Of a DNA stretch of 42,362 nt, positions 3,877 to 36,474 are shown one piece after another (within the stretch, counting starts at the first letter, position 1; each line of letters opens with the position of its first letter). Origin of the DNA: a bacterium. GTDB taxonomy: Bacteria; Patescibacteriota; Minisyncoccia; UBA9983. The position numbers and the translations under genes are program-made. Below the pieces are notes generated by a model that worked only from the letters and a program-made list of their open reading frames with translations, was not told the origin of the DNA and ran no database searches. Location of the stretch: NCBI GenBank assembly GCA_013152035.1, contig JAADHB010000013.1:1-42362 (forward strand), given 5' to 3'.

Positions 3877-4248
3877 TTAAATTGATAATAAGGGGAAATT
3901 TGGGATTTTTTGAAAATCGCGGACATTTCTTGTGATTAAGGTGGTGCCGGTAAAAATTGCAGTAGCCGCGATAACACTGTCCGGCGTTTTAACTCCATAT
4001 TTTCTTCTTAAAAATCCGGCAAGGCGGGCAATCCGCGAATCCAGTGAAATAACCGAAAGAGTGTTAATTAAACTGTCAATCTGTTTTGATTCCTTTGGCG
4101 TCAATCTCGGAAATCCAAACAATTCAACCTCCGTAATCGACGAAATATAAACAGGGGAACTTTTTCTAAAAACATCTTCAAGGATGCTTGCGGCGTTTTC
4201 ATTACCCTTAAAATAATAAATTATGGCATTTGTATCAAGGGTATACAT
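3877..4248 (-). CDS. vapC: PIN-domain ribonuclease toxin VapC
   Basis: 123 aa with MYTLDTNAIIYY.. and conserved acidic positions typical of PIN/VapC. A small upstream ORF is present. Confidence 0.8.
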   Translation of the reverse strand: MYTLDTNAIIYYFKGNENAASILEDVFRKSSPVYISSITEVELFGFPRLTPKESKQIDSLINTLSVISLDSRIARLAGFLRRKYGVKTPDSVIAATAIFTGTTLITRNVRDFQKIPNFPLLSI

Positions 4249-4266: not shown

Positions 4267-4431
4267 TTAAACTCTTTCCCATTCTTTGCGCATTTTACTT
4301 AATTCTCTCGCAGGATCCGGCTTCCGCCTTTTCCACATACCCTTAACCTTTCTCCAAACCAAAATTCGCTCCTGGGGCATAACGAGCGGGTATATAAGCT
4401 TAATATCTCTTTTTATTGTTTTATAAGCCAT
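4267..4431 (-). CDS. small putative VapB-type antitoxin (54 aa, below the ORF-track cutoff)
   Basis: My own translation is MAYKTIKRDIKLIYPLVMPQERILVWRKVKGMWKRRKPDPARELSKMRKEWERV*. It ends 18 nt upstream of the vapC start. Support is position and size only. Confidence 0.45.
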   Translation of the reverse strand: MAYKTIKRDIKLIYPLVMPQERILVWRKVKGMWKRRKPDPARELSKMRKEWERV

Positions 4432-4432
4432 A

Positions 4433-4443
4433 TTTATTGTTTA
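4433..4443. repeat. right copy of 11-bp direct repeat TTTATTGTTTA (contains the jag stop codon)
   Basis: Identical to 3866..3876. It starts 2 nt after the vapB-like ATG (4431) and includes the jag stop codon (TTA on plus, 4434-4436). Confidence 0.5.
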
Positions 4444-7771: not shown

Positions 7772-8113
7772 ATGAAAGCATTTTGTTTGAAAAAATATTT
7801 TAAAGACGCCGTGTTAATGTGCGAGAAAATTACCGGCAAAAACCTTACGCTTCCCGTGCTGGGGAATATTATTATTTCCGGGGAAGATAATAATTTGAAA
7901 TTTATCGCCACAAATCTTGAGGTTGGCGTGGAGGTGAGCGTGCCGGCGAAAATAGAGGAAAAAGGAAAGGTCGCGGTTCCGGCGAATGTTATTAGCGGTT
8001 TCCTGTCAAATCTTTCCTTTGACGACAATATCTCAATTGAATCAAAAAATAATAACCTCTCATTAATGACATCAAACACTTCAACCTTAATAAAAGGCCA
8101 GCCTTTCTTTTGA
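7772..8113 (+). CDS. dnaN: DNA polymerase III beta sliding clamp, N-terminal fragment (frame break 8094-8110)
   Basis: 113 aa of clamp domain I (..LPVLGNIIISGEDNNLKFIATNLEVGVEV..). It stops at TGA 8111-8113 while frame 3 continues with ..SFDDFPNLPKI.. Confidence 0.9.
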   Translation: MKAFCLKKYFKDAVLMCEKITGKNLTLPVLGNIIISGEDNNLKFIATNLEVGVEVSVPAKIEEKGKVAVPANVISGFLSNLSFDDNISIESKNNNLSLMTSNTSTLIKGQPFF

Positions 8114-8153
8114 TGATTTCCCGAATCTTCCAAAAATAAAAAACGAAAAAGAG

Positions 8154-8879
8154 GTGGAAATGCCGGCGCGCGATTTTATTTCCGGATTAAAGTCGGTTAT
8201 GTACGCGGCGTCATTATTAAATATTAAGCCGGAAATTTCCTCGGTTTACATTAATTCCGATGATAAAAACACTATTATATTCGCCGCCACTGATTCATTC
8301 AGGTTGGCTGAGAAAAAAATCAACCAATCTTTGAATGACTTTAAAAATATTCTCATACCGTTAAAAAGCGTTTCGGAGATTTTGAGGATTTTTGACGGAA
8401 GAGAAGGAAATATAAAATTAATTCCCGACAAAAACCAGATTATGGTGTCAATGGATAATATAAAATTCATATCAAGGCTCACGGAGGGCGTTTTTCCGGA
8501 CTACCGGCAAATAATTCCAAATAAATTCACGACGGATATTATCGTCAATAAGGATTTATTTTTAAATTCCCTGAAAATGGCGAGTGTTTTTTCAGGGAAA
8601 TTAAACGAAGTTAATATCATCACCGGATCAGACAATAAATCATTGACGATTAACACCGTTAATTCCGAGTCCGGCGAACATATCACGAATATTCCGGCGA
8701 AAATAACGGGTGATGAACTAAAAATGTCTTTTAATCATAAGTATATTTTTGACTGCCTCCAGCAGATACCGTCATTGGATATTATTTTAAGATTTTCCGG
8801 AGACGGGAAACCGCTCATTATAATCGGAGTTGACGACAATTCTTTCCAATATCTTGTGATGCCGATGAATAATTTGTAA
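8154..8879 (+). CDS. dnaN: DNA polymerase III beta sliding clamp, C-terminal fragment (frame is open from 8094)
   Basis: ..IFAATDSFRLAEKKI.. ..ISRLTEGVFPDYRQIIP.. ..PLIIIGVDDNSFQYLVMPM.. are typical DnaN domains II-III. Confidence 0.9.
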   Translation: MEMPARDFISGLKSVMYAASLLNIKPEISSVYINSDDKNTIIFAATDSFRLAEKKINQSLNDFKNILIPLKSVSEILRIFDGREGNIKLIPDKNQIMVSMDNIKFISRLTEGVFPDYRQIIPNKFTTDIIVNKDLFLNSLKMASVFSGKLNEVNIITGSDNKSLTINTVNSESGEHITNIPAKITGDELKMSFNHKYIFDCLQQIPSLDIILRFSGDGKPLIIIGVDDNSFQYLVMPMNNL

Positions 8880-8893
8880 TTTTCCAGCGTATT

Positions 8894-9736
8894 ATGGATA
8901 AAGATAAAAACAAAAAAAACAAAAAAAATTTCATCCATCCACTTAGGACGTTCAAGACGGATATGAATGATTACGTGAAAAAGAAAGGGGTTTCAATGGT
9001 TGATATTATGCTGGCAAACCAAAAGAAGAAAAACTTTTGGAGCCTAAAAAACAGAAGAAAGGTGTTTTCAGGAAAGGCCGTGATTATTACGGCGGCGGCG
9101 TTATTGTTTATTGGGGGTTTTTCGTTGATTTTTTTACTGGCGCGAAAAAACAGCGAACCAAATCCGGTTGTTGAAGTTTCGTTAAAGCCGATAATCACCG
9201 CCGACAGAGATGAGGCCGTTTCCGTAAAAAATATCGGCGATATCCTTAAGGTGCCGGTTCCATCAAAGAAACTTTTGAATATTTCCGTTTTTTCCGGAAA
9301 CGGCGAAAATAAAAAAACAATTTTGTCGGCCGATAAGTTTTTTGAGGGAGCGGGTATAAGTGTTCCGCGGCCCCTCGCCGATTCTCTTGACGGAAAATTT
9401 ATGCTTGGTGTTTTTCGTTCGTCGCGAAAGTCTCCGGTTTTAATATTGAAAGTTAAATTTTACGAGCGCGCTTTCGCCTCAATGATAAATTGGGAGAAAA
9501 ATATGTTTGAGAATTTGGGGATATTTTTTGGCGGGGAGGAAACGGAACCAAACTCCGACGGCTTTATTGACAAAGAAATCAGAAACACGGACACAAGAAT
9601 TTTGTATGACACCGAAGGGAACCCTATTTTAATTTACGCGTTTTTCGGAAAAAAATATCTGGTGATTACCGACAATAAAGACGCCCTTGTTGAAATATTC
9701 CGCCGCCTGTCCTCGTCGCGATACCTGGATAATTAA
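8894..9736 (+). CDS. hypothetical single-pass membrane protein
   Basis: 280 aa with a Lys-rich N-terminus and one TM helix (..AVIITAAALLFIGGFSLIFLLA..). I recognise no family. Confidence 0.55.
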   Translation: MDKDKNKKNKKNFIHPLRTFKTDMNDYVKKKGVSMVDIMLANQKKKNFWSLKNRRKVFSGKAVIITAAALLFIGGFSLIFLLARKNSEPNPVVEVSLKPIITADRDEAVSVKNIGDILKVPVPSKKLLNISVFSGNGENKKTILSADKFFEGAGISVPRPLADSLDGKFMLGVFRSSRKSPVLILKVKFYERAFASMINWEKNMFENLGIFFGGEETEPNSDGFIDKEIRNTDTRILYDTEGNPILIYAFFGKKYLVITDNKDALVEIFRRLSSSRYLDN

Positions 9737-9788
9737 ACAATCAAATCCTATTGCCGTTTTTTTGGGTTTTAGGTATAATCAAATTATC

Positions 9789-10163
9789 ATGCCGTTAACA
9801 AAAGAAAAAATTGAATATTTTAAGGAGAAGCTTAATAAAAGAAAAGCCGAATTGGAAAAGGAGCTTTCCGTTGTCGCGAGGAAAAATCCGGACGTGAAAG
9901 GGGATTGGGAGCCGACGCAGGCCGATATGAACCCGATGGTTTCCGACAGAAATGAAATGGCGGACACTTTTGAAGAAATGGAGGAAAGGGCGGTGGTTGA
10001 AGACAGCCTTGAAGAGCAGTTTGATTTGGTTGTCCAAGCTCTGGAGCGCGTTAAAAAAGGAACCTACGGAATATGCGAAACATGTGGGGAGGATATAGAC
10101 GAAAGAAGGCTTGAAGCGCTTCCCGCCGCGAAAAATTGCGTTAAACACACTAAAAATAAGTAA
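9789..10163 (+). CDS. DksA/TraR-family C4 zinc-finger protein
   Basis: A coiled-coil N-terminus and the C-terminal ..GTYGICETCGEDIDERRLEALPAAKNCVKH.. (CxxC-N17-C..). The start is taken at ATG 9789, 9 nt after TATAAT (9774..9779). Confidence 0.8.
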   Translation: MPLTKEKIEYFKEKLNKRKAELEKELSVVARKNPDVKGDWEPTQADMNPMVSDRNEMADTFEEMEERAVVEDSLEEQFDLVVQALERVKKGTYGICETCGEDIDERRLEALPAAKNCVKHTKNK

Positions 10164-17196: not shown

Positions 17197-17232
17197 GCGG
17201 CGGCTTCCGGCGGGCGGGGCAGAAATGGGCGC
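17197..17232. repeat. left copy of a 36-bp imperfect direct repeat (relic of the fpg 3' end)
   Basis: GCGGCGGCTTCCGGCGGGCGGGGCAGAAATGGGCGC matches 18344..18379 at 32 of 36 positions. On the minus strand it reads ..AHFCPARRKPP.., compared with fpg ..AHFCPVHQKPP.. Confidence 0.75.
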
Positions 17233-17293: not shown

Positions 17294-18340
17294 ATGATAC
17301 GATTAAACAAAAGACAGGATGAGATTTTGTCGCTTTTGGAAAGCGGCGGCCTGTCCGTTTCCGAAATACGCGAAAAGCTTTCCGCCACCCTGGGCGAGGT
17401 TTCCAAAATCACCGTCAACAGGGACCTGGAGAAGTTGATCGGCTTAAACTACGCGGCAAGAACAGGCAGGGCAAGGGCGGCGCGATATTTTCTGTCTCCC
17501 CACTTTAATCTCGTCAGGCCCGTCAAAATTGAAGAGTATTTCAAGGTTGAACCGGACAAAAGAGACGCGAAAGAGCGTTTTGATTTCAGTGTTTTCGCCA
17601 TTCTTAAAAATATTTTTACAAGCGAAGAAGGAAAGCGGCTCAACGAACTGAACGAAGAATACCGAAAAAACCTCAAAAAACTTTCTCCCGCGTTGCGGAA
17701 AAAAGAATTTGAACGGCTGGTGATAGAATTGAGTTGGAAATCCTCCTTGATTGAGGGCAACACCTACACGCTTTTGGAGACAGAATCCTTGATCAAGGAA
17801 AAGAAAGAACCCAAGGGGCACAAAAAGGAAGAAGCGATAATGATTTTGAACCACAAAAAGACTCTTGATTACATTAGGAAAAATCAAAACAAATTCAAAA
17901 CGGTAAGCGTGTCAAAAATAGAAGACATCCATTATTTGCTTACCAAGGGATTGGGGATTTCAAGGAGTATAAGGAAGTCCGCCGTGGGAATCACCGGCAC
18001 CAAGTACAAGCCGCTGGACAATCAATTCAAAATCAGAGAGGCGCTGGAAAAGACTTGCCGTTTGATAAACAAAGAAAAAGACTTTTTTGCCAAGGCGCTT
18101 CTCGTGTCCGTTATGATCGCCTATATTCAACCCTTTGAGGATGGCAACAAGAGAACCAGCAGATTGACGGCCAATGCGGTTTTAATGGCCCACGGGTCTT
18201 GCCCGCTGTCTTACCGAAGCGTTGACGAAACGGAATACAAAAAGGCGGTTATTCTTTTTTACGAACAAAACAATATCAGTTATTTTAAAAAACTGTTCAT
18301 TGAGCAGTTTGAGTTCGCGGTGAAAAATTATTTTACTTAA
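17294..18340 (+). CDS. HTH-Fic/Doc family protein with a degenerate active-site motif
   Basis: 348 aa with an N-terminal wHTH (..LSVSEIREKLS..VSKITVNRDLEKLIG..) and an inhibitory-helix-type motif S-S-L-I-E-G (17741-17761). The Fic core reads QPFEDGNKRTSR (18128-18163) instead of HxFx(D/E)GNGRxxR. Confidence 0.85.
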   Translation: MIRLNKRQDEILSLLESGGLSVSEIREKLSATLGEVSKITVNRDLEKLIGLNYAARTGRARAARYFLSPHFNLVRPVKIEEYFKVEPDKRDAKERFDFSVFAILKNIFTSEEGKRLNELNEEYRKNLKKLSPALRKKEFERLVIELSWKSSLIEGNTYTLLETESLIKEKKEPKGHKKEEAIMILNHKKTLDYIRKNQNKFKTVSVSKIEDIHYLLTKGLGISRSIRKSAVGITGTKYKPLDNQFKIREALEKTCRLINKEKDFFAKALLVSVMIAYIQPFEDGNKRTSRLTANAVLMAHGSCPLSYRSVDETEYKKAVILFYEQNNISYFKKLFIEQFEFAVKNYFT

Positions 18341-19238
18341 TCTGCGGCGGCTTCTGGTGAACGGGGCAGAAATGGGCGCTCCGTTGCCCTATTTTGATTT
18401 TTTTGATAATTCCGCCGTCATTCTTTTTGCATTTGGTTCCCGTCATTTGGTAGGCGTAATGCATTTCTTGGTAGCGCCCCTTCCTTCCGAAGGCGTCGCG
18501 GTAATCAATATATGAGCTTCCTCTCGCTTTTATCGCTCGCCTGAGAATCGGCTTTATGGACGAATATATTTTTTTAATTTCCTCCGCGGTTAATTTGTCC
18601 GTTTTCTTCGCCGGGTGGACTCCCGCCGCCCATAATATCTCATCCGCGTAGATGTTGCCGATGCCGGCGATTATTTTCGGATCCATCAAGACTTGCTTAA
18701 TCGCTCGCGAGCCGCGCAAACGCTCCTTGAATTTTTTGAGAGTCAGGTTTTTGTCAAAAGGGTCCGGTCCCAATTCCCCAATGTCCTTAAGTTCCGCCAG
18801 TCTGTCCGTCGGCCAAAGCAAAACTTTGGCGAATTTCCGCATGTCGCACAGCGCTAGTTGAAATCCGCTGGACAAAAAGAATACAAGGCGGATGAAGCGG
18901 TTTTCCGGATCGTCCCGCAGGGGGCCGGGAATGGCGCTTTTCCACGCCGTTTTTCCGTCCGGCGTTTTTTTCTCCTTCCATTTTCCATACAGCAGATGCC
19001 CTGTCATTTTCTGGTGGACCAAGAGTGTCATGTTTCCGGACAAATGAACAAGAACATTTTTCCCCTTTCTCTCAACGCCCAAAATCTTCCGTCCGACTAT
19101 CTCTTTTTTGAATTTGCCGAAACTTTTCGGCTCCTTGATGTATTTTTCAAAATCAGTCCAAACATCCCGGATTTTCAATCCGGGCAGGACGCTTTCCAAG
19201 CCGCTCACGATTGTTTCCACCTCGGGCAACTCCGGCAT
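18333..19238 (-). CDS. mutM: formamidopyrimidine-DNA glycosylase (Fpg/MutM family)
   Basis: MPELPEVETIVSGL.. is the N-terminal catalytic signature, so the start is taken at ATG 19238 rather than the listed 19337. An H2TH region follows. The 3' end overlaps the convergent fic stop by 8 nt. Confidence 0.9.
   Translation of the reverse strand: MPELPEVETIVSGLESVLPGLKIRDVWTDFEKYIKEPKSFGKFKKEIVGRKILGVERKGKNVLVHLSGNMTLLVHQKMTGHLLYGKWKEKKTPDGKTAWKSAIPGPLRDDPENRFIRLVFFLSSGFQLALCDMRKFAKVLLWPTDRLAELKDIGELGPDPFDKNLTLKKFKERLRGSRAIKQVLMDPKIIAGIGNIYADEILWAAGVHPAKKTDKLTAEEIKKIYSSIKPILRRAIKARGSSYIDYRDAFGRKGRYQEMHYAYQMTGTKCKKNDGGIIKKIKIGQRSAHFCPVHQKPPQIK
18344..18379. repeat. right copy of the 36-bp direct repeat (inside the functional fpg 3' end)
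   Basis: GCGGCGGCTTCTGGTGAACGGGGCAGAAATGGGCGC; see 17197..17232. Confidence 0.75.
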
Positions 19239-20710: not shown

Positions 20711-21661
20711 ATGAACAAAAAAGAGTATTCTATCGATTTTGGAGGGGAAAAGCTTTCCGTTGAAATATCGGATTTGGCGGAGCAGGCGAACGGCTCCGCG
20801 CTCGTCCGCTACGGAGAAACAACTGTTTTCGCCACCGCCGTAATGTCAAAACACAAGCGCGAGGGCCTGGACTATTTTCCGTTATCCGTTGACTATGAAG
20901 AGAAATTTTACGCCGCCGGACAAATTCTTGGCAGCCGTTTTATGCGCCGTGAAGGCAGGCCGTCCGAGGAGGCGATTTTGACGGGCCGCGCCATTGACCG
21001 GACCATTCGCCCGCTTTTCAATAAAAAGATAAGGAACGAGGTCCAGGTTGTGGTGCTGGCGCTTTCCGTTGACAAGAAAAACGATCCCGATGTTCCGGCG
21101 ATAATCGCCGCTTCGCTGGCTCTCGGCATTTCCGACATTCCATGGGGAGGGCCCGTCGGGGCGGCGAGGATTACCTTCGCTGACGGGAAATATCTGACCA
21201 ACCCGACGCACGACGAACGGAACGGCGTTGATTTGAGCGTGCTCGCTTGCGGAAAAGACGGGAAAATAAATATGATAGAGGCGGGCGGATTAGAAGTGAA
21301 AGAAGACATCGCCGTTTCGGCATTGGAGGCGGCGGCGAAGGAAATCAAAAAAATTCAAAAATTCCAGGAGGAAATAATCAGGGAAATCGGCAAGGAAAAA
21401 CGCGCGGTGGAAATCAAGGGGGACCCCAAGGGAATGAAAGAATTGTTTGATGAAAAATTTTTGTCAAAAGTGAACGAAATCATCTATGGGGGCGAAATGG
21501 GCGAACTGAACGATTTAAAAAGCGAATGGCTGAAGGCGGTTGAAGAAAATATCGGCGAAGGAAATAACTTGCCGGCGGACGATTTTTTTGAGGAAAAAAT
21601 AAACGAAATAATACACGAAGAAATCATAAACAACGAAAAAAGGCCCGACGGCAGAAAATAA
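20711..21661 (+). CDS. pnp: polynucleotide phosphorylase, fragment 1 of 3 (first RNase PH domain)
   Basis: ..[10 protein letters not shown].. ..[23 protein letters not shown].. ..RTIRPLF.. It ends ..RPDGRK* at TAA 21659-21661. Confidence 0.92.
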
Positions 21662-21663
21662 AA

Positions 21664-22542
21664 TTGGACGAAGTGCGCCCCATTTTCGCCGACACGGGAG
21701 TTTTGCCGGTCGTCCACGGATCCGGAGTTTTTTACAGGGGCGGAACGCACATTCTTTCTCTAGTCACTCTCGGCGGACCGAAAGAGGGCCAGCTGATTGA
21801 GGGAATGGAAGTGCAAACCGTAAAGCATTTTATGCATCATTACAATTTTCCTCCGTTTTCAACCGGCGAGACGGGCAGAATGGGAGGAACCGGCAGGAGA
21901 GAAGTCGGGCATGGCGCCTTGGCGGAGAAAGCGTTGTCGGCTGTCATTCCCTCTCGCGAAGATTTTCCCTACACCATCAGGGTTGTTTCGGAGTCAATGG
22001 CGTCAAACGGATCCACATCTCAGGGGTCAATCTGCGCGTCAACAATGGCGCTGATGGATGCCGGAGTGCCCATTAAAAACCCGGTGGCGGGGATTGCCAT
22101 GGGATTAATGTTGAAAGACGAGAAGAATTACAAAATACTAACGGATATTCAAGGGCCGGAGGACCACCATGGCGATATGGATTTCAAGGCGGCGGGCACC
22201 AAAGAGGGCATTACCGCCATCCAAATGGATGTTAAAGTCGCCGGCGTCACCGTTGAAATTCTCAAGGAGGCGCTGGAGCAGGCGAAAAAGGCGAGGGAGG
22301 GGATTTTGGAGGTTATGCTTAAGGCGCTGCCCGGACCTCGCGAGCTTTCAAAGCGCGCTCCCGTGATCATGAAAATTATGATTGACCCGAGTAAAATCGG
22401 CGCGGTTGTCGGTCCCGGCGGGAAAATGATCAACAGTATCATTGAAAAAACGGGCGTTGAAATAGACATAGACCAAGACGGAACGGTGCTCATCACCGGA
22501 AAAGACCGCGAGGCGAGGACGCGGACAAAGCGAAAAAGATAA
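21664..22542 (+). CDS. pnp: polynucleotide phosphorylase, fragment 2 of 3 (second RNase PH domain + KH)
   Basis: [25 protein letters not shown].. ..[15 protein letters not shown].. ..[14 protein letters not shown].. ..[12 protein letters not shown].. ..[14 protein letters not shown].. Confidence 0.92.
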
Positions 22543-22568
22543 TAGAAGGGCTGACGCACGAATACGAA

Positions 22569-22880
22569 GTGGGGGAAATTGTTGAGGGGCCGGTTTCAAG
22601 GTTGTTTGACTTCGGCGCCATGGTGGAAATCGGACCGATGCAGGAGGGCTTGGTCCACATTTCCGAACTCACTTTGTTCAGGGTGAACAAAGTGACGGAT
22701 GTGGTCAATGTCGGAGACAAGGTGAAGGCGAAAATCATCAGCATTGACGAAAAAGGCAGAGTTAATCTCTCCGTTAAGCAACTGGATCCCAACTACAATC
22801 CGTCCGCCGACCCGCGACGGAACGGAAACGGCAGAACCTTTGGAAACAACAACCACTCGCGAAACGGCGCCGGCAGATAA
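22569..22880 (+). CDS. pnp: polynucleotide phosphorylase, fragment 3 of 3 (S1 domain; homologous frame is open from about 22518)
   Basis: ..[33 protein letters not shown].. ..[22 protein letters not shown].. is an S1 domain. The same frame upstream reads [18 protein letters not shown]. Confidence 0.9.
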
Positions 22881-27745: not shown

Positions 27746-30268
27746 TTAAAATTGAAACTTGACCGGAACAACCGTTTCGGATTTGTTTTTAACCTTGTCG
27801 TAGGCGACGATTTTTATGTCGTAGGATTCCGTCGTGGTCGCCGGCGCCAGGGCGCCCGATGGGACGAAGGAAAATCCAAACGGTTTCTTGTTGGAGGAGC
27901 CGAGATACACGCCGTTCAAAAAGAAATCAACCTGGTCCAGCCCGAATTTGCTTTTGCTTGAAAAGCGGACGCTCATTATGCTTCTCGGGTTGTAGGACGC
28001 CATCGGGGTGGGCGATTTGACGCTGATTTTTGGAGCGTATTCCGGCTTATGAACATCGTCAAATTCTTGGGGAATGTCATTCATCGTCTTGTCTTTGATG
28101 TTCTGTTTTTTCGCCCACTCCCTCACCGGCGTTTCCCACAGCGAAAACTGAGAATCGTTTTCGGGATTTTCCGGAGCCGGACCGAGCGGGTCATTCTTGT
28201 TTATCCAGTACAGAATTGAATGGGGTTGGGTCAGCGTTTTCTTTTCAATCAATTCCGGCGGCGTAAATTTTGTCGCCAGCTTTCCGGAGATTTTGTCAAT
28301 GGAATAAGTCTTTCCTCCCCGCCATTCGCCGCGGAGAAACGGTTTCGGCTCCGGCTGGGGAACCGGCTTTTCAAATTTTTCTTTCGGGAGCATCGGCAAA
28401 ACTTCTTGCATAAAGGCGTTCCAAAAAGGGGCGGCGATGAAGCTGGCGGTTTCGTATTTCATTTGGGTGTTGTCATTGTTTCCCACCCACACTCCGACGG
28501 CGATGTTGGGGGAGTATCCCACGACCCACGCGTCTTTGAATTCGTTTGTCGTTCCCGTCTTCGCCGCCACATCGTAGCCGTCAATATGCAGAGGGGAACG
28601 CGCTCCGAACATCGGCGTTCTCGCTTTGTTGTCCGACAAAACATCGGTGACGAGCAGCGCTACATTTTTATCAATGGCTTTTTCCGGACGCGGGGAAAAT
28701 TCTTCCAACACATTTCCTTTTGAGTCCTCCACCCGCAAAATTCCGGTGTACGGATTCCGCATCCCCTTGTTGGCGAACGCGGAATAGGCGCCGGTCATTT
28801 CAAGAAGGGAAACCTCTCCTCCTCCGAGGACCAAAGTCAGCCCGTACCTTTGCAGGTCCGCGAGTGTCGTAATTCCCATATTTCGGATAACCTCGCCGGC
28901 TTTTTTCAGTCCGGTCAAATACAAAACTTTCACGGACGGAACATTCAGCGACTGCGCCAGCGCGTCCCTGAATGTCAGCGGTCCCCGATATTTTCCGTCG
29001 GAGTTTTGCGGCATATAGCATTTTATTTCGGGATTGTCGGTTTTTGGCGTTCCATTTGGGTTGCAGGAGCTGTTGAATTCCGTTTTCAAATCAAAAACGA
29101 CAGTGTCCGGAGTATATCCTTTTTTGAAGGCGGCGGCGTAAATAAAAGGCTTGATGGCGGAGCCGGGCTGGCGGCGCGCCAGCGTAACATTGAAATTTCC
29201 CTGGTCCTCGACATTAAAATAATCTTTTGACCCGACCATTGAAAGAATCTGCCCTGTCTTCGGGTCAATGACAATCATGGCGGCGTTTTTTGCTCCGAAT
29301 TTTTTAAAATTTATTTCCGCGTATTTCGCCGTCATTTCCTCCGCCTTTTGCTGCAAATCGTAATTCAGGGTGGTTATCACCTTTAACCCCCCCCGCTCAA
29401 CCATATCCTTTCCGTATTTTTTCTCAAGATAGGAGCGGACGAAAATGGAGAAATGGGGGGCCTTGATTGACTGGTTGCCTCTGCCGACAAACACCACTTT
29501 TTCCTTCGCGGCGGCTTCTTTTTCCTCTTTTGTTATGAAGCCGAGCTTCAGCATTCTCTCCAGCACGAGATTTTTTCTGTTTTCCAGCTCCTCGCGGTTG
29601 TTGCCGTACGGCGAATAATACGTCGGGGACTGGGGGAGCGCCGCCAGATAGGCGGATTCCGCGAGCGTCAAGCCGCTGGCGTGCTTGCCGAAAAAACTTT
29701 GGCTCGCCGCCTCAATTCCGTAATTGACCCCGCCGTACGGAATCTCGTTCAGATACAAATCAAGTATTTTCTCCTTGGACAGTTTTTTTTCAAGCTTGAG
29801 CGTCAAAATCGCCTCTTTTATTTTTCTGGCGTAACTTTTTTCTCTCGTCAAAAAGGCGTTTTTGATAAGCTGCTGGGAAATCGTGGACCCGCCCTGCCTG
29901 GAGTTTTTATTTCTCAAGTTTGCTAGGAAGGCGCGAGTGATCGCCTTGAAATCAATGCCGTTGTGGTTGTAAAAGTTTGAATCCTCAATGGCGACCGTGG
30001 CGTTTTTCAGGTCTCTGGAAATTTTGTCAAACGGCACCACCGTCCGGCGAATATCCTGGTGAATGTCCCAGAGCAGGATATTTCCGGTGCGATCGTAAAT
30101 TTTCGTTGACTGGATTACTTTTATGTTGTCAAAAGAGCCGAAATCCGGTATTTTCAGCGTTGAAATCCAGAAAAAAAGCAGCCCCCCGCCGAACATTCCG
30201 GCGATTAGAAGCAGGAGAATGGAAGCGTGTATAAATTTTGCCAAACGAGAGTGTTTTTCGCGCGTCAT
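27746..30268 (-). CDS. class A penicillin-binding protein (glycosyltransferase GT51 + transpeptidase) with a C-terminal extension
   Basis: 840 aa with an N-terminal TM, GT51 motifs (..VAIEDSNFYNHNGID.., ..GGSTISQQLIKN..) and TPase motifs (..RQPGSAIKPF.., ..SLN.., ..KTGTT..). Confidence 0.93.
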   Translation of the reverse strand: MTREKHSRLAKFIHASILLLLIAGMFGGGLLFFWISTLKIPDFGSFDNIKVIQSTKIYDRTGNILLWDIHQDIRRTVVPFDKISRDLKNATVAIEDSNFYNHNGIDFKAITRAFLANLRNKNSRQGGSTISQQLIKNAFLTREKSYARKIKEAILTLKLEKKLSKEKILDLYLNEIPYGGVNYGIEAASQSFFGKHASGLTLAESAYLAALPQSPTYYSPYGNNREELENRKNLVLERMLKLGFITKEEKEAAAKEKVVFVGRGNQSIKAPHFSIFVRSYLEKKYGKDMVERGGLKVITTLNYDLQQKAEEMTAKYAEINFKKFGAKNAAMIVIDPKTGQILSMVGSKDYFNVEDQGNFNVTLARRQPGSAIKPFIYAAAFKKGYTPDTVVFDLKTEFNSSCNPNGTPKTDNPEIKCYMPQNSDGKYRGPLTFRDALAQSLNVPSVKVLYLTGLKKAGEVIRNMGITTLADLQRYGLTLVLGGGEVSLLEMTGAYSAFANKGMRNPYTGILRVEDSKGNVLEEFSPRPEKAIDKNVALLVTDVLSDNKARTPMFGARSPLHIDGYDVAAKTGTTNEFKDAWVVGYSPNIAVGVWVGNNDNTQMKYETASFIAAPFWNAFMQEVLPMLPKEKFEKPVPQPEPKPFLRGEWRGGKTYSIDKISGKLATKFTPPELIEKKTLTQPHSILYWINKNDPLGPAPENPENDSQFSLWETPVREWAKKQNIKDKTMNDIPQEFDDVHKPEYAPKISVKSPTPMASYNPRSIMSVRFSSKSKFGLDQVDFFLNGVYLGSSNKKPFGFSFVPSGALAPATTTESYDIKIVAYDKVKNKSETVVPVKFQF

Positions 30269-30478
30269 TGCTTAATATGGTAGCACAAAACCCCTCCGCG
30301 TCAAAAAAATGCCCCCCCAGTTCAACAATTAATTGCAACACCAAAGCGTTTTTCTTGGATTCCCGATTCTAAGAATGTAGTAATGACACGAATTTAGGCT
30401 AAACCGCGCTCAATGTGGTTATCCACAAAATCTTGGCAATGTATTGACTCTTTTGCAAAACGGTAATACGATAAGAAT

Positions 30479-30535
30479 GTGCTTGTGGGCGAAAGCCCCG
30501 TTCAGTTAAGGAATTCCTAAACTGAAGGCAAGCAC
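30479..30535 (+). ncRNA. compact three-way-junction RNA element (strand uncertain)
   Basis: P1 is GTGCTTG/CAAGCAC, P2 is GGGC-GAAA-GCCC and P3 is TTCAGTT..AGG-AATT-CCT..AACTGAA. It is preceded on the plus strand by TTGACT(30444)-17 nt-TACGAT(30467), and followed by a 15-bp A/T-rich hairpin at 30536..30570. Confidence 0.35.
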
Positions 30536-30570
30536 AACAAAAATATTCTGCTTGGCAGGATATTTTTGTT

Positions 30571-31041
30571 TTAATCATCCTCAATTTTGCCTGTCGCCAG
30601 TTTTTGCTCCCTACCTCGTTTTAATTTTGAAAAAGGCATAACGCTCCAAAAAATTATATTACCGTCACCAATTTTTTTTAACACAGTTTTTATTTTTAAA
30701 TTATTTTCTCCAACAATGGCTATAAAACCCCAATATTCCACCTGCTTCATTGTTTGAAAACCTCCTCTTTTTGATTTCTTCCCCGTAGCCACCGGCATTT
30801 TCCTGTACTCCTGGACGGTTCCTGTTTTTTTGATTATCTTAATCGCGAGAGGCAAAAGCGTGAATTTGAGTATCTGCTCATGCTTGTTTCGCTCTCTTCT
30901 GGCTGAAAAACGCAGGTGGTGAAATCCATCCGAGTTAAATATGATATTTTTTTGAAAATACGGGCAAAATACATCTCCAACTTTATTAAAAATATCTTGA
31001 GCCCTTTCCTTTTGTTTTCTGTGATAATCTGTTTGATCCAT
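30571..31041 (-). CDS. hypothetical protein (156 aa)
   Basis: An intact ORF that looks coding (no low-complexity shadow character). I recognise no family. It sits between two att-like repeat copies. Confidence 0.5.
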   Translation of the reverse strand: MDQTDYHRKQKERAQDIFNKVGDVFCPYFQKNIIFNSDGFHHLRFSARRERNKHEQILKFTLLPLAIKIIKKTGTVQEYRKMPVATGKKSKRGGFQTMKQVEYWGFIAIVGENNLKIKTVLKKIGDGNIIFWSVMPFSKLKRGREQKLATGKIEDD

Positions 31042-31063
31042 AATTTACCCCAGATAATAGCAC

Positions 31064-31131
31064 ACCCGCCCCATTTTCAAAAACGGCGAAAAGTGCTATT
31101 ATGCCGAATATGGACAATGAAGAAAAAATAG
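31064..31131 (+). repeat. left copy of the duplicated tyrS promoter/5' end (43 bp perfect core 31089..31131)
   Basis: The core AAAAGTGCTATTATGCCGAATATGGACAATGAAGAAAAAATAG is identical to 33718..33760. The upstream ~25 bp are imperfectly similar. It starts a chimeric 26-codon ORF (31101..31181) whose TGA overlaps the ATG at 31178 (ATGA). Confidence 0.9.
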
Positions 31132-31177
31132 CGGACACGCTCGGCGCTCCGCCCGAGGATTTAATACGAAGAAACCT

Positions 31178-31861
31178 ATGAACGAAATTATTTATATACT
31201 CACAAACGAAGCAATGCCCGGTTATGTGAAAATCGGCAAAACCACCACATCTGCTGAGCAGCGCGTATTAGAACTATCCAGATCGTCCGCGGTGCCCTTA
31301 CCGTTTGAGTGTTACTACGCTGCTCAAGTAGCCGATGCAAGCAAAACTGAAGAAGCTCTCCACGATGCGTTTGGCGACCACCGTGTTAATCCTCGGAGAG
31401 AATTTTTCAGTATAGCCCCGGAACGGATTATTGCGATCCTTAAACTTTTAGAGCTTAGGGATGTTACACCCTCAAGAAATGTAGGCGTTGAATCTAGGGA
31501 GGACGCTATAGCACTTGAAAAAGCGAAGAAAAGAAGGTCTGCTTTCAATTTTAAAATGTTAGATATTCCGGCTGGGGCAGAATTAAAGTTTATACGCGAT
31601 GAAAAAATTACATGTATCGTTGCTCCCGACCAAAAACATGTAATTTTTAATGACAAAGAGATGTCGTCTTCTGAGGCTGCAGCGCAAGTATTAGGAAATA
31701 AGTGGTGGCCCGCAGGATCGGATTATTGGACATATGATGGTGAAATATTAAGCGAGCGACGGATACGCCTAGAAGAGGACGATAAAACTACAGAGGAAGA
31801 AATTGAGGCTGCTGGTGACGCATGGATTCAAAATCAGATTGACCAAGAAAGAGGAAAATAA
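31178..31861 (+). CDS. T5orf172 (MUG113) / GIY-YIG-like domain protein
   Basis: MNEIIYILTNEAMPGYVKIGKTT..RVLEL..PLPFECYYA..V.D..EEALHDAFGDHRVNPRREFF.. is the T5orf172 pattern. A C-terminal ~100-aa extra domain is unassigned. Confidence 0.7.
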   Translation: MNEIIYILTNEAMPGYVKIGKTTTSAEQRVLELSRSSAVPLPFECYYAAQVADASKTEEALHDAFGDHRVNPRREFFSIAPERIIAILKLLELRDVTPSRNVGVESREDAIALEKAKKRRSAFNFKMLDIPAGAELKFIRDEKITCIVAPDQKHVIFNDKEMSSSEAAAQVLGNKWWPAGSDYWTYDGEILSERRIRLEEDDKTTEEEIEAAGDAWIQNQIDQERGK

Positions 31862-31946
31862 TTATCAATAATGATATTACAAACAAAAAGGCGTTTATCT
31901 TTACATACTGACTTGCAACGAGAAACACCTTTCAATCCGTGCATTT

Positions 31947-32131
31947 TTGGACGCAATGAAGCAAAAGGTTTATGAAAAACAGAAAGGTACTTGTGTCCAT
32001 TGCAAAAAACACTTTGAATTGGAAGAAATGGAAGCAGATCATATAACTCCTTGGCATGAGAGAGGAAAAACGACAGAAAAAATTGCCAAATGCTATGCAA
32101 AGAATGTAATAGACGAAAGTCTGGGAAATAA
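31947..32131 (+). pseudogene. small HNH endonuclease, frame broken in an A6 run (32077-32082)
   Basis: ..KQKVYEKQKGTCVHCKKHFELEEMEADHITPWHERGKTTE is in frame 3. The next frame then reads NCQMLCKECNRRKSGK* (stop 32129-32131). Together they make a complete HNH beta-beta-alpha motif. The N-terminal boundary is uncertain (an ATG at 31871 is in another frame). Confidence 0.7.
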
Positions 32132-32137
32132 AATTTT

Positions 32138-32455
32138 ATGTTAACACTATATAATAGAGAAGATGATGAAATAAAAAAATTACATGAAGAATGGCCAAAG
32201 ATATCATATGAGAAAAAGGTTGATAAATTTTTGTGGAAAATGGTGTGGTTTCATCACGAAAAGCACATCCCGGGAAGTCCTTCCAAGCCGATTAACGAAC
32301 TAAACGAGACAATTAAAAAAGCATCAGACTCTTCCGAAAAACTTACTAATTCTATTCGCACGGCAACTTGGGTAGCGGCAATAATTGGAGGACTTGCTTT
32401 GCTGGTAGCGGCAATTAGTTTACTGAAGGATTTCGGGGTCTTTGATTTGAAATAA
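32138..32455 (+). CDS. small tail-anchored membrane protein (105 aa)
   Basis: A single C-terminal TM helix (..TWVAAIIGGLALLVAAISLL..) and a hydrophilic N-terminal part. No family is recognised. Confidence 0.55.
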   Translation: MLTLYNREDDEIKKLHEEWPKISYEKKVDKFLWKMVWFHHEKHIPGSPSKPINELNETIKKASDSSEKLTNSIRTATWVAAIIGGLALLVAAISLLKDFGVFDLK

Positions 32456-32571
32456 ATTTATGGTGTTTGATCCAATAAAATCAGCAACGGAAATGGTAAA
32501 AAGGTGTGTATAACTTTCTTTACATTGCCCTTGACAAGAATTTCTACATCGCTTAGGATGGAGGTGTAATT

Positions 32572-33360
32572 ATGCTTGCGGATTTTATCAAAAAACAGCG
32601 TATCAAGCGAAACATGACGCAGGGATATTTGGCGTCGGAACTTGATATGTCCCGTCCCACCTATACGCAAATTGAGCGCGGCGAGCGGGAACTTACCATA
32701 TCCGAAGCAAAAAAACTTGCGGCGATTTTTGATATGTCGCTGGAGGATTTCCTTGCCGGCAGGAACGCGAGTTTTTCCGTTTCAATTGGAAAGAGTGGAA
32801 GTAAAAAAAATAAAACAACCGCGGAAAAATCGGAAATACGAATCAATGTGCCGCAGGAAAAAGCTGAAAAATTTAAGCAGGTGCTCTTATATATACTCGC
32901 TAAAATAGGCGGAAAGCCGAATATTGGGCAGACGGTATTGTACAAACTCTTGTATTTTATTGATTTTGATTATTACGAAAAATTTGAGGAACAACTCATT
33001 GGAGCGAAATATATCAAAAACCATTACGGTCCGACGCCCGTGGCGTTCGCCAAGATAATTGGCGATCTTGACCGCGCCGGCAAGGTTGAAAAAATAAAAA
33101 GCAAGTTTTATAAGCACGAGCAGACGAAATATCTGGTTAATCCGGAAGAGCCGATTGATCTTTCCGCGCTTTCCGCGCGGGAACTCGCCCATATAGATTG
33201 GGAGATTGATCGGCTTGGCGATTTGACCGCGACGCAAATTTCCGCGCTTTCGCATATTGACACCCCATGGAAGGTCGCTAAAGAGAGGGAGGCGCTGGAA
33301 TATGAGCATGTTTTCTATCGGCCCGAAGAAACTTCCGTGAGAAATTATGACGCGCTTTAA
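32572..33360 (+). CDS. XRE-family HTH fused to a DUF4065 (Panacea/SocA-like) antitoxin domain
   Basis: The N-terminal ..RIKRNMTQGYLASELDMSRPTYTQIERGERELTISEAKKLAAIF.. is an HTH_XRE. The C-terminal ..TVLYKLLYFIDFDYYEKFEEQLIGAKYIKNHYGPTPVAF.. is the DUF4065 signature. Confidence 0.78.
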   Translation: MLADFIKKQRIKRNMTQGYLASELDMSRPTYTQIERGERELTISEAKKLAAIFDMSLEDFLAGRNASFSVSIGKSGSKKNKTTAEKSEIRINVPQEKAEKFKQVLLYILAKIGGKPNIGQTVLYKLLYFIDFDYYEKFEEQLIGAKYIKNHYGPTPVAFAKIIGDLDRAGKVEKIKSKFYKHEQTKYLVNPEEPIDLSALSARELAHIDWEIDRLGDLTATQISALSHIDTPWKVAKEREALEYEHVFYRPEETSVRNYDAL

Positions 33361-33690
33361 CGAAACTGATCAATTTAAAAAAGAATCTAAAAAACTTTTC
33401 AAAAAATACAAAACATTGGACGGCGATCTTGAGAGGTTTAAAAAATACTCGCTATTTATCCGACGGGCGTCGGCAAGAATTTCATAATTATTCATTCCGC
33501 GAAAGATTTGAAAATCGTAAAAGCGCATCTGGCTTGCCGCGCGTTGCGGAATAATCATTTACTGCGCGTTATTTATTCTTATTTTGAGCGGGAGCAACGG
33601 ATTGAGTTTATTGAGTTGTATTTTAAGGGCGACAAAGAAAACGAGGACCGCGAGCGAATAAAAGAGTATTTGAAAAATAACCAAATCTAG
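33347..33690 (+). pseudogene. RelE/ParE-superfamily (Gp49/HigB-like) toxin, frame broken in an A6 run (33440-33445)
   Basis: MTRFNETDQFKKESKKLFKKYKTLDGDLERFKK| then, in the next frame, |ILAIYPTGVGKNFIIIHSAKDLKIVKAHLACRALRNNHLLRVIYSYFEREQRIEFIELYFKGDKENEDRERIKEYL.. The start overlaps the antitoxin 3' end by 14 nt. Confidence 0.65.
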
Positions 33691-33691
33691 C

Positions 33692-33760
33692 CCCCGCCCT
33701 GTTTTTAAAAAAAGGCAAAAAGTGCTATTATGCCGAATATGGACAATGAAGAAAAAATAG
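33692..33760 (+). repeat. right copy of the duplicated tyrS promoter/5' end (core 33718..33760)
   Basis: See 31064..31131. It contains the extended -10 TGCTATTAT (33723..33731) and ATGs at 33730 and 33739. Confidence 0.9.
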
Positions 33761-34920
33761 AGCGGCTTTTGGCCCGCGGGACCGCGGAGGTGATTGAGAA
33801 GAAACACCTTGAAGAAAGGATTAAAAAGGGCGATAAATTAAGAATAAAAAACGGAGCCGATCCGACAGCCCCGGATTTGCATTTGGGGCACGCGGTTATT
33901 TTGAGAAAGCTGAGGGAATTTCAAGATCTCGGGCACCAAGTCGTTTTCATTATTGGAGATTTTACCGCCAGAGTGGGAGACCCTTCGGGCAAGTCGGCGA
34001 CAAGGCCGATGTTGTCCGAAGAGGAAATTAAAAAAAACGCCAAGACTTATTTTGAACAGGCGGGGAAAATTATTGACATTGAAAAAACGGAAATCCATTA
34101 TAACAGCGAATGGTTTTTGAAAGAGGGGTGGGCGGAAGTTTTGGAGATTGCCGGGAAATTCACCGTGCAGAGAGTTTTGGAGAGGGACGACTTTGAAAGG
34201 CGCATCAAGGCGGGAGTGGAAATTACAATGAAGGAGGTTTTGTATCCGCTGATGCAGGCGTACGACTCAGTTAAAATAAGGGCGGATGTTGAAATAGGCG
34301 GAACGGACCAGAAATTCAATATGCTCGCGGGCAGGACGCTTCAGCGAAAGATGGGGATGGCGGAGCAGGATGTAATCATGATGCCCATTCTCACGGGGCT
34401 GGACGGAGAGCGAAAAATGTCAAAGTCGCTGGGAAACTACATCGGCGTGACTGACGCTCCGAACGATATGTTCGGTAAGGTGATGTCCATTCCGGACAAA
34501 ATCATTATGGAGTGGGCGGAGTTGGCTGCGGATTATTCCGGGGAAGAGCTGGTGGAAATCGGAAAAAGGCTTGAGCGTGGAGAAAATCCGAGAAACATAA
34601 AAATTGAGATGGCGGAGAGGATTACGGCGATGTACCACGGAAAAGAAGAGGCGACCTCCGCGAAAGAAAATTTCATAAAGCTTTTTCAAAAGAAAGAAAT
34701 ACCGGATGATATTCCGGAAATTGCCGCCGAGAAAGGCGACGCGCTCGGGGACATTCTTATTGAGAACAAAATTGTCGCGTCCAAGAGTGAGTTCCGCCGG
34801 CTGGTCAAGGCTGGAGCGGTGGACGCGGACGGGGAGCCGATTGTTGATATTCATTTCGCCATTGAACGGCCGACCGTCGTCAAGGTCGGGAAGAGAAGAT
34901 TCGTTAAGGTGAAAATTTAA
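33730..34920 (+). CDS. tyrS: tyrosine--tRNA ligase
   Basis: 396 aa with HIGH-type ..PDLHLGHAV.., KMSKS and a C-terminal S4-like domain. If the mRNA is leaderless the real start is ATG 33739, 7 nt after the -10. Confidence 0.95.
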   Translation: MPNMDNEEKIERLLARGTAEVIEKKHLEERIKKGDKLRIKNGADPTAPDLHLGHAVILRKLREFQDLGHQVVFIIGDFTARVGDPSGKSATRPMLSEEEIKKNAKTYFEQAGKIIDIEKTEIHYNSEWFLKEGWAEVLEIAGKFTVQRVLERDDFERRIKAGVEITMKEVLYPLMQAYDSVKIRADVEIGGTDQKFNMLAGRTLQRKMGMAEQDVIMMPILTGLDGERKMSKSLGNYIGVTDAPNDMFGKVMSIPDKIIMEWAELAADYSGEELVEIGKRLERGENPRNIKIEMAERITAMYHGKEEATSAKENFIKLFQKKEIPDDIPEIAAEKGDALGDILIENKIVASKSEFRRLVKAGAVDADGEPIVDIHFAIERPTVVKVGKRRFVKVKI

Positions 34921-35741: not shown

Positions 35742-35775
35742 AACAAAATTATAACACTAGAAACAAAGATTTGCT

Positions 35776-36474
35776 TTACCTTTTTTTAAAAACGTATTCT
35801 AAGTGTTTTGCGGTTACATCGGCGGTTACGCTTGGGCGGCCGCGGAGCTCTTTGTATAATATTTCAAACCCACTGAACAATTCCTCCACTTCTTTTTCCT
35901 TAAAAAAGTGATGTGGCAAATAACCGTCTTTTTGTTTTGTGTTGATTCTTGTTCCGGGTTCCACCTCTTCGCCGGTCAGATAGCGCGGATCATCTGTCGA
36001 GGGTACGGAAAAAGCAAGCAAGCCGCCCCTTTTTAAAACTCTTTTAATATCAAGACACCATTTTTTAATCTGATTCATATATCCGTGCTCAACGACCAGG
36101 GTTGACAACACTCCGTCAAAATACTCATCTCTGTATGGCAATTTGTCGTCTAAATTATGAACAAGGGTGTTAATTGAAATATCTTGATTTTTTGATATCC
36201 CTGCTTGTTCTATGACATTATTTAATATTTCAATTGCTTTGTTGGATATATCAAGAGATTCAAAACGCGCCTTTTTGTGATGGTTTGCCAACTTTTCCGC
36301 CACAAACATCGTGTGCCTTCCCGTCCCGCAACCGTTATCCAACAATACAAAATCCGGCTTATCCTGCTGAAGCAGGAGGTCTGTGATTTTTTCTACGCAG
36401 GGCATAATTTCCTTCTGCACAATATTAAGCTCTTTATATATTTCTTCCCACCCTTTTATGTTTTTTGTATCCAT
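35776..36474 (-). CDS. class I SAM-dependent methyltransferase
   Basis: ..VLLDNGCGTGRH.. is motif I and ..GGLLAFSV.. is post-motif. The substrate is unknown. Confidence 0.8.
   Translation of the reverse strand: MDTKNIKGWEEIYKELNIVQKEIMPCVEKITDLLLQQDKPDFVLLDNGCGTGRHTMFVAEKLANHHKKARFESLDISNKAIEILNNVIEQAGISKNQDISINTLVHNLDDKLPYRDEYFDGVLSTLVVEHGYMNQIKKWCLDIKRVLKRGGLLAFSVPSTDDPRYLTGEEVEPGTRINTKQKDGYLPHHFFKEKEVEELFSGFEILYKELRGRPSVTADVTAKHLEYVFKKR

Follow-up and report, generated by a model that had tools for sequence, protein, structure and literature searches.

The stretch analysed here (the window) covers positions 1-42,362 of contig JAADHB010000013.1 and represents a chromosome segment of an uncultured bacterium of the Patescibacteria, also called the Candidate Phyla Radiation (CPR). 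The window genes include dnaA, dnaN, polA, fpg, pnp, PBP1A, tyrS, ruvC, yebC and ruvB, and the closest relatives of the encoded tyrosine-tRNA ligase, TyrS, occur in Patescibacteria metagenome-assembled genomes. At the start of tyrS the window carries a cassette of accessory genes bracketed by two direct copies of the tyrS promoter and gene start. The copies, at 31089-31131 and 33718-33760, are identical at 43 of 43 bp, as found with a repeat finder and confirmed by string equality; the same pair had been reported in a first-pass annotation made from the sequence. From left to right, the locus comprises the following features, given with their open reading frames (ORFs), protein lengths in amino acids (aa) and, where present, helix-turn-helix (HTH) domains:

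31065-31131, forward strand: left copy of the tyrS promoter and start, with a C-rich block, a -35-like TTTTCA, an extended -10, ATG, 7 codons and 1 nt
31110-31181, forward strand: fusion ORF of 23 codons, TyrS codons 1-7 followed by the last 16 codons of an HTH controller gene
31132-31177, forward strand: 3' remnant of the controller gene, of HTH type (C-protein-like), lacking roughly its first 47 codons
31178-31861, forward strand: T5orf172/MUG113 (GIY-YIG-like) protein of 227 aa, assigned by Pfam and as PDC-S57 by PADLOC
31862-32128, forward strand: deletion scar, the start of an EcoRI_methylase-family gene and the end of a GmrSD_N/HNH gene, frameshifted
32138-32455, forward strand: ORF of 105 aa with a C-terminal hydrophobic segment, a predicted small membrane protein
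32500-32571, forward strand: toxin-antitoxin promoter region, TTGACA-17-TAGGAT at 32531-32559, conserved with L087-L095
32572-33360, forward strand: PanA-type antitoxin of 262 aa, HTH_3 and SocA/Panacea (PF13274, E = 4e-17)
33347-33690, forward strand: cognate small toxin, overlapping the antitoxin by 14 nt; the toxins of relatives have 110-116 aa
33693-33760, forward strand: right copy, the working tyrS promoter and start, TTTAAA-16-TATTAT with TG
33739-34920, forward strand: tyrS (tyrosine-tRNA ligase), intact, with a predicted leaderless start at 33739

Loci from other contigs that were used for comparison carry the letter L and a number.

The repeated tyrS start and the DNA between its copies

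The exact repeat forms the 3' part of a longer similarity, and the imperfect likeness previously noted for about 25 bp further upstream is borne out by alignment. In register, the two copies match over 58 nt at 95%; with one 1-nt indel, the repeat extends to 68 columns at 91% identity (31065-31131 and 33693-33760). All six differences between the copies fall within the upstream 25 of the 68 columns (P about 0.002-0.003), where 19 of 25 positions are identical and the indel is located, and the rest is identical at 43 of 43. Within this upstream part the left copy is nearer to the relative L001 and the right copy nearer to L002. The tyrS repeat is the longest direct repeat of the window and the sole one of its kind there. 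Its 30-nt core occurs exactly twice, and was absent from 100 of 100 dinucleotide-preserving shuffles with 3 mismatches permitted.

The true start of tyrS is almost certainly the second ATG, at 33739 (MDNEEKIERLL...), as judged from comparison of the sequences. The arrangement of TGCTATNAT, a spacer of 6-8 nt and ATG is also found at the tyrS of the relatives L002, L003 and L004. In the window, TGCTATNAT occurs six times vs 0.5 expected, and in five of these cases it stands between a few and a dozen nt 5' of the ATG of a gene (polA, fpg, orf156 and, twice, tyrS). Because this arrangement recurs at the tyrS of relatives and is enriched in the window, the tyrS mRNA is predicted to be leaderless and to originate from an extended -10 promoter (TGCTATTAT). 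Each repeat copy spans an upstream block with a C-rich stretch, a T-run and an A-run, followed by the -10 box, the ATG, and 7 codons with one further base. In the left copy, the extended -10 TGCTATTAT is located at 31094-31102 and the predicted leaderless ATG at 31110. The right copy starts 2 nt past the toxin stop; it had been described as promoter plus the first 10 tyrS codons, and the promoter part of this description stands, while the coding part amounts to 7 codons and 1 nt when counted from the ATG at 33739. A derivation of the coding part from the HTH gene instead of tyrS was rejected, as the promoter and the '(E/S/Q)KI(E/K)xLL' N-terminus are kept in the TyrS of relatives.

The DNA between the copies comprises 2,561 bp and has a GC content of 40.9%, vs 49.4% for PBP1A and 48.5% for tyrS. 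The homologues of T5orf172 in other Patescibacteria contigs share 86-90% aa and 84-85% DNA identity, and those of the toxin-antitoxin pair 78-82% aa and 72-76% DNA identity, whereas the best non-self match of TyrS in a collection of 5.8 billion proteins reaches 68% aa identity. The low GC content and the close homologues in unrelated contigs, set against this distant TyrS, support a foreign origin of the sequence between the repeats and its insertion at the start of tyrS. The neighborhood of tyrS in relatives agrees with the insertion of a gene cassette at a housekeeping gene start, as proposed in the first-pass annotation. PBP1A is divergent from tyrS and adjacent to it in 30 of 80 related loci, with a usual gap of 12-130 bp, and the gap in the window is 3.47 kb. 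The relatives L001-L004 have a single tyrS promoter of the TGCTATNAT type, with PBP1A adjacent in L002 and L004, which provides an empty site at the level of the family; at the level of the strain, exact-protein look-ups of TyrS and T5orf172 and a TyrS homologue search yielded neither a conspecific genome nor an empty site. A degenerate pattern of the coding part of the repeat gave 0 matches in a metagenome scan, and the cassette is present at tyrS in 0 of the 80 tyrS loci.

Elsewhere, T5orf172 homologues belong to an operon of the order HTH (69 aa), T5orf172, methylase and GmrSD/HNH that occupies many unrelated loci (purN/dnaJ, guaA-like and others), with the methylase and HNH genes intact 3' of T5orf172 in L084, L096, L097 and L099. 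The nearest PanA loci (L087-L089) show the same order: methylase, two small ORFs, GmrSD/HNH, three small ORFs, PanA and toxin. By this comparison of gene order, the window cassette appears to be a contracted version of a widespread Patescibacteria defence island. The island had no match in a phage collection, and among plasmids only weak DUF262/HNH similarity to the HNH remnant was detected.

The T5orf172 protein matches the PADLOC candidate defence family PDC-S57 over its full length (PDLC05041, E = 2.3e-71), with residues 2-201 aligned to profile positions 5-209 of 212, and retains every residue that is invariant in 27 homologues. Pfam recognizes no Zn-finger or CapR-type DNA-binding domain in it, the C-terminal half included. 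The gene is intact though its operon partners (controller, methylase and GmrSD/HNH gene) are lost. If T5orf172 were the restriction nuclease of its operon, this partnerless state should be lethal; PADLOC lists PDC-S57 as a single-gene candidate. The scar that follows keeps ~25 nt from the start of the methyltransferase gene, fused to ~83 codons from the end of a GmrSD_N/HNH gene (residues 278-360 of 360 aa), and about 1.9 kb are absent compared with L084 and L096. The 105-aa ORF has no family match and no counterpart in related islands. The antitoxin and the small gene overlapping it have, by sequence, the features that define a PanA (Panacea-domain) antitoxin-toxin pair. In the window the toxin is split into ORFs of 46 aa and 60 aa by one A too few in the run at 33440-33445, and it is 70-88% identical to the 110-116-aa partners in L087-L095. 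The frameshift is probably a homopolymer sequencing error, because similar single-base frameshifts split the essential genes dnaN (7772-8879), pnp (20711-22880) and gpmI (156-1573); those of dnaN and of the toxin fall in homopolymer runs. The assembly probably carries homopolymer indel errors, and split ORFs in the window are therefore not to be taken as pseudogenes without read support. Five accessory genes had been counted between the repeats: four of them hold, counting the toxin with its 1-nt deficit, and the fifth, at 31881-32128, is only the GmrSD/HNH part of the scar.

Junctions of the cassette and explanations for its insertion

The left junction is located inside a gene of the cassette itself. 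In L096-L100, an HTH gene of 69 aa lies directly 5' of T5orf172, and the window aligns with its last ~22 codons. In blastn comparisons with these loci the alignments start at 31104 or 31123 and extend over 770-789 nt at 77-79% identity; tblastn aligns HTH residues 48-69 to 31104-31169 (E = 0.002), and PNMDNEEKIADTLGAPPEDLIRR of the window corresponds to PTIDTVQKIAKALGVGLEDLTK of L097, the C-terminal end of the HTH protein. The 16 codons into which the left copy reads had been taken as unrelated sequence, and prove to be this controller tail; the ATGA overlap described with them is present. The fusion ORF ends with MDNEEKIADTLGAPPEDLIRRNL and a TGA at 31179-31181, overlapping the T5orf172 ATG at 31178. 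This coupling appears to continue the tight HTH-T5orf172 arrangement of the ancestral operon. The joint itself, between 31131 and 31132, falls at AAAAAAT(A/C)G, which is shared by tyrS codons 5-7 (GAA AAA ATA G) and the HTH gene (CAA AAA ATC G). The microhomology measures 7-8 nt, AAAAAAT being exact, and sits inside a 28-nt patch identical to tyrS at 19 of 28 positions. Because the joint cuts the cassette's own controller gene at a microhomology, it is best read as an illegitimate microhomology joint and not as an att or homing site; about 47 controller codons and the promoter would have been lost with it.

On the right, the homology of the toxin-antitoxin pair to other loci stops at the toxin stop. 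The repeat begins 2 nt after it with CCCCCGCCC, and the toxin 3' flank in L087 and L088 is CCCCACCCGCC. It is plausible from these sequences that the right joint also formed at a short C-rich microhomology (CCCGCC).

Of the ORFs in the window (42 kb) that were screened with Pfam or inspected by eye, none was found to encode an integrase or transposase, and Pfam, NCBIfam and PHROGs detect no recombinase in the cassette or the rest of the window. No tRNA was found near the cassette and no terminal inverted repeats at its ends, 31132 and 33692, so that the first-pass annotation and the searches agree on these absences. The interval 30200-33800 has no Rfam match, even at E = 1. A DNA transposon or insertion sequence was rejected, with no transposase or inverted repeats found and a duplication of 43-68 bp vs 2-15 bp.

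On balance we lean toward a one-step, microhomology-mediated 'insertion with long target duplication' (Kobayashi-type) into the tyrS promoter and 5' end. The donor would have been a Patescibacteria defence island with an HTH controller, T5orf172, a methylase, GmrSD/HNH, further genes and, last, a PanA antitoxin and toxin. The left end of the insert would have joined tyrS after codon 7 at AAAAAAT(N)G, inside the controller gene, which was truncated as a result, and for the right end the joint would lie about 68 bp upstream of that point, where the tyrS promoter has its C-rich block (CCCGCC). As the joints would be staggered on the target, the 68 bp between them would now be present on both sides of the insert. 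Two routes can be considered. In replication template switching, synthesis would leave tyrS at +30, copy the foreign DNA and re-enter at -38; in staggered-break repair, a break whose staggered ends are long would trap a fragment and then be filled in. The right copy would keep tyrS intact, and the left copy would replace the lost controller and promoter, giving T5orf172 a -10 box, a leaderless start and, as a coupled leader, 23 codons. Deletion of the methylase and of most of the HNH gene may have followed the insertion, and the 43 identical bp would represent the -10-to-+30 segment, functionally used in both copies. The placement of T5orf172 under a tyrS promoter copy is a plausible side effect of such an event. 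The cassette had been described as driven and translationally coupled by a captured promoter and start: capture is made plausible by the left copy being the sole promoter-like element 5' of T5orf172 and by the ATGA overlap, and the captured promoter may well be used.

Several points weigh against this one-step insertion. A fresh duplication would be identical throughout, and the clustered differences between the copies need selection or gene conversion; they could instead mark a crossover between diverged sequences. We attribute them to constraint on the -10-to-+30 segment, which would act twice because the left copy is the only promoter of T5orf172 and the right copy drives tyrS. The empty site is deduced at family level only (62-68% TyrS identity), the searched collections containing no conspecific genome. 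There is no second tyrS-start copy in 12 related loci that have 0.3-1.8 kb between PBP1A and tyrS. Nor do such repeats surround the other T5orf172 or PanA loci examined, apart from a 191-bp repeat in L092-L095 (see below). The microhomologies are read not from the true donor but from homologues that are 77-79% identical. Finally, both junctions are known from the assembly alone, and this assembly is one with homopolymer indel errors.

The main rival is a Campbell-type integration, to which we give a minor but real chance. A circle or a repeat-flanked segment with a diverged tyrS start fragment would have recombined through a RecA crossover within the 43 bp, leaving two hybrid copies. The identity pattern fits such an exchange, with 43/43 beside 19/25 and an indel (P about 0.002-0.003), and so does the different affinity of the upstream arms to L001 and L002. 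A length of 43 bp exceeds the minimum that RecA pairing usually needs. Several repeats that bracket Fic genes in other loci (see below) are diverged too (81-89%), some with a long identical 3' block (L170, L179), and a repeat-mediated amplification-and-release cycle has been proposed for such units by Kobayashi's group (PMC2853133). However, the same two illegitimate joints, between the toxin flank and tyrS -55 and between tyrS +30 and the truncated controller, would be needed earlier, which adds extra steps. The searched collections yielded no circle, no second copy and no related strain, and selection on the -10/+30 segment in both copies can explain the asymmetry. Quite improbable is an integrase-less element (CIME-like or satellite-like; CIME, cis-mobilizable element) that targeted the tyrS 5' end, with the 43-bp repeats as attL and attR and a tyrosine or serine recombinase acting in trans; it would bring its own promoter and start and so restore the target gene. 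Exact direct repeats do bound the cassette, the target gene is restored and the inner DNA is foreign and low in GC; moreover, the window covers only 42 kb of the genome, so the trans recombinase could lie outside. Yet the window itself contains no detected recombinase, and the left end lies inside a truncated controller gene and not in a conserved arm. The other T5orf172 and toxin-antitoxin copies have no common att-like sequence, their homology ending at gene boundaries, and neither the 80 tyrS loci nor the T5orf172/PanA loci examined hold the cassette at tyrS. The repeats of Fic cassettes differ from locus to locus, which points to target duplication and not to a fixed att site.

Assembly error is very unlikely to account for the structure. 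Two molecules with a common 43-mer, an empty-site chromosome and an element or strain variant, would have been threaded into one contig. The contig does come from a metagenome and has the frameshift errors in dnaN, pnp and gpmI, and an assembly graph with k < 43 cannot distinguish an integrated cassette from a circle that coexists with an empty site. Both junction sequences must nevertheless exist in real molecules, however threaded, and the left junction, an in-frame fusion at a microhomology with the ATGA coupling kept, is a biological signature. Errors of the homopolymer type suggest long reads, which would span 2.6 kb, and the architecture recurs for Fic cassettes in independent assemblies. 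Hardly credible is homing by the encoded T5orf172 (GIY-YIG-like) or HNH nuclease, the candidates named in the first-pass annotation, whereby an empty tyrS start would be cut and the cassette copied in by repair. T5orf172 is intact, and T5orf172 proteins have been seen as homing endonucleases in ICP1-like and T5-like phages, clustered beside essential genes (PMC10448857), a position that the domain shares in the cassette. However, homing uses homologous flanks and makes no target duplication, and 68 bp are duplicated here; the left junction truncates the operon's own controller gene, and of the HNH gene, which was deleted, a 3' remnant is all that is left. Zn-finger (CapR-like) repeats, present in the phage proteins, are not recognized in the cassette protein. 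The latter belongs to the PDC-S57 operon family, whose close T5orf172 homologues occur in restriction-modification (R-M)-like operons at unrelated loci and in no case at tyrS.

Recurrence of repeat-bracketed cassettes and neighboring insertions

The first-pass annotation proposed that the same logic applies at fpg and jag. At fpg, a 36-nt repeat (17197-17232 and 18344-18379, 89%) brackets an HTH-Fic gene at 17294-18340 (PDC-S04/SoFic-like), but the right copy consists of the last 12 fpg codons, so that a 3' end and not a gene start is duplicated. At jag, the likeness is weak. A VapBC-like pair lies between tig and jag (PIN 3877-4248; small antitoxin-like ORF ~4268-4424), flanked by the AT-rich TAAACAATAAA of 14-17 nt (3863-3880 and 4410-4443) that includes the jag stop codon; this repeat is too short for a confident call of target duplication. 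A separate 33-nt 'jag' repeat (3853/7737) was dismissed as merely AT-rich, promoter-like similarity.

Repeats around Fic genes extend beyond the window. Of 61 metagenomic loci that encode relatives of the window Fic protein and have enough flank (among L106-L185), 11-12 are bracketed by locus-specific repeats of 28-143 nt; among 405 control ORFs comparable in size, 7-12 are (Fisher P about 1e-6). Bracketing is roughly 10-fold commoner at these Fic loci (~20%) than at control ORFs, and the bracketed controls themselves include accessory genes, namely two other Fic families and a DUF4143 ATPase. At Fic loci the right copy starts -4 to +28 nt from the stop and the left copy ends 51-224 nt before the start; in L138, the repeat corresponds to the first 27 codons of a glycosyltransferase gene. 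In one Fic clade the cassettes end in inverted termini that are conserved, namely TAGCTCAT, at positions -82 to -84 relative to the ATG, and ACGAGCTA, 10-21 nt past the stop (L162:2677-4088, L175:1962-3360, also L158, L166, L172, L173, L177, L179 and L181). In two independent loci, L162 and L175, the termini are adjoined without a gap by unrelated direct repeats, 125 and 127 nt long. Such termini, together with these duplications, hint at a 'ruler' mechanism specific to the element, and we know of no precedent for defined ends together with a target duplication of ~125 bp. Classical integrases are largely missing near the islands of Patescibacteria, and a dedicated pathway in this group that inserts single genes or small defence cassettes at gene boundaries, with duplications of 28-190 bp, might have produced the tyrS and fpg/Fic cassettes and those of the ~20% of Fic loci, although we give this only a small chance.

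Long repeats were also observed at loci related to the cassette genes. A 191-bp repeat (98%; L092:7190-7380 and 9716-9906, the same in L093, L094 and L095, Ryanbacteria-like) holds an APH/HAD kinase gene's promoter together with its first ~19 codons and brackets a 2.5-kb APH-NUDIX-103aa cassette directly 3' of the PanA toxin-antitoxin module. A 126-nt repeat (L085:62-187 and 901-1026) is situated between small cassettes 5' of the T5orf172 operon. The hairpin motif TTATTTCGCACAAtctatgTTGTGCGACATTT follows several genes (L085:21-54, 1450-1490 and 3345-3381; L084:422-456 and 2314-2347) and could be an element resembling a repetitive extragenic palindrome or a terminator.

The surroundings of the cassette contain further accessory DNA. 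The interval 30305-31064 (GC 0.37), left of the first repeat copy, holds orf156 and a small RNA and constitutes a separate, earlier insertion. This module is located at 30444-30572 (+) and 30571-31041 (-), and is also present at L101:1911-2010, L102:2108-2206 and L105:788-888. The orf156 family is uncharacterised and comprises 670 clusters. A hidden recombinase was ruled out for orf156, its confident AlphaFold2 model having no PDB match and its sequence only weak LPD3 similarity. In 3 of 3 homologue loci examined, a structured RNA of ~95 nt is convergent with the 3' end of the orf156-family gene; it has its own TTGAC-type promoter and terminator, a fold z-score of -8 and no Rfam match. Between loci, the core of the RNA is conserved at about 90-95% identity, vs 54-59% for the orf156-family proteins, and compensatory changes occur in 7 of 34 base pairs. 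Because the genomic contexts differ, orf156 and the RNA look like a mobile protein-plus-RNA module. On the other side, a class I S-adenosylmethionine-dependent methyltransferase gene (35776-36474, reverse strand, GC 0.40) lies between ruvC and yebC, which adjoin directly in the relatives L001-L004. It looks like another small insertion in the tyrS neighborhood, and no flanking repeat was seen at it. The likeness of GTTTTTAAAAAAAGGCAAA to the 3' end of this gene (35775-35794) was discarded as chance, since the sequence is coding and 2 of 100 shuffles equal it.

Relation to known systems and significance

Processes of microhomology-mediated illegitimate recombination include template switching (microhomology-mediated break-induced replication, MMBIR, and fork stalling and template switching, FoSTeS) and the short-patch double illegitimate recombination of DNA that has been taken up. 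The tyrS cassette resembles their products in its 7-8-nt microhomology within a 68%-identical 28-nt patch, its C-rich second joint and its flanking target duplication. However, experimental evidence for these processes comes from short patches or from other organisms, whereas the tyrS insert measures 2.6 kb and the process would have to be read from a single end product. Elements of the CIME type and islands of the IMEX type (integrative mobile elements exploiting Xer) are likewise free of a recombinase, flanked by direct repeats and placed beside a conserved gene; unlike the tyrS cassette, they have a fixed att- or dif-like core that is conserved among copies and a known recombinase, and the cassette instead ends in a truncated gene and has no common att.

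The closest parallel is the insertion of R-M units with long target duplication (Nobusato et al., 2000; Furuta, Abe and Kobayashi, 2010). R-M units inserted without mobility genes have repeats of >30 bp, lie at gene ends and deviate in GC content, by a mechanism that is unknown (PMC2853133), and double-strand breakage has been suggested for these insertions (PMC2853133). Furuta et al. (2010) sought repeats of >30 bp, an insert of <20 kb, no mobility genes, R and M genes inside, and a single repeat at the empty site. The tyrS cassette has a repeat of >30 bp and an insert of <20 kb in which no mobility gene was found; of the R and M homologues, only scars are left (~25 nt of the methylase start and the last 83 GmrSD/HNH codons). 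Like the R-M units, it is a defence/addiction unit of <20 kb with deviant GC and without integrase or transposase, and in both the repeats represent the duplicated target, which often overlaps the end of a neighboring gene. The repeat lengths are comparable, 46-47 bp in Haemophilus and Thermus vs 43 bp exact and 68 bp in total at tyrS. In contrast to the R-M units, the R-M part of the tyrS cassette is decayed and a PanA toxin-antitoxin pair is present. The target also differs: R-M units duplicate a 3' end or intergenic DNA, and the tyrS event duplicated a promoter and a predicted leaderless 5' end, apparently rewiring the first cassette gene. Furthermore, the host is a member of the Patescibacteria, and the empty site derives from relatives with 62-68% TyrS identity instead of a conspecific strain. 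As a member of a class that is known but mechanistically unsolved, the event is new to the phylum and, in duplicating a promoter and leaderless start, unusual. Direct repeats and integrases both go unmentioned in a recent survey that deals with horizontal transfer in Patescibacteria (PMC12455944).

Taken alone, the tyrS case is one further example of this known class. 'Insertion with long target duplication' has been recognized for 25 years with its mechanism unsolved, and the tyrS junction offers a readable microhomology signature. The frequent repeat-bracketed Fic cassettes in Patescibacteria metagenomes could supply independent events for work on the mechanism. For the organism, the locus shows how a streamlined, integrase-poor CPR genome can gain defence genes at the start of an essential gene without harm, and how an incoming gene may be rewired, its own controller and promoter being swapped for a copy of a housekeeping, putatively leaderless promoter.

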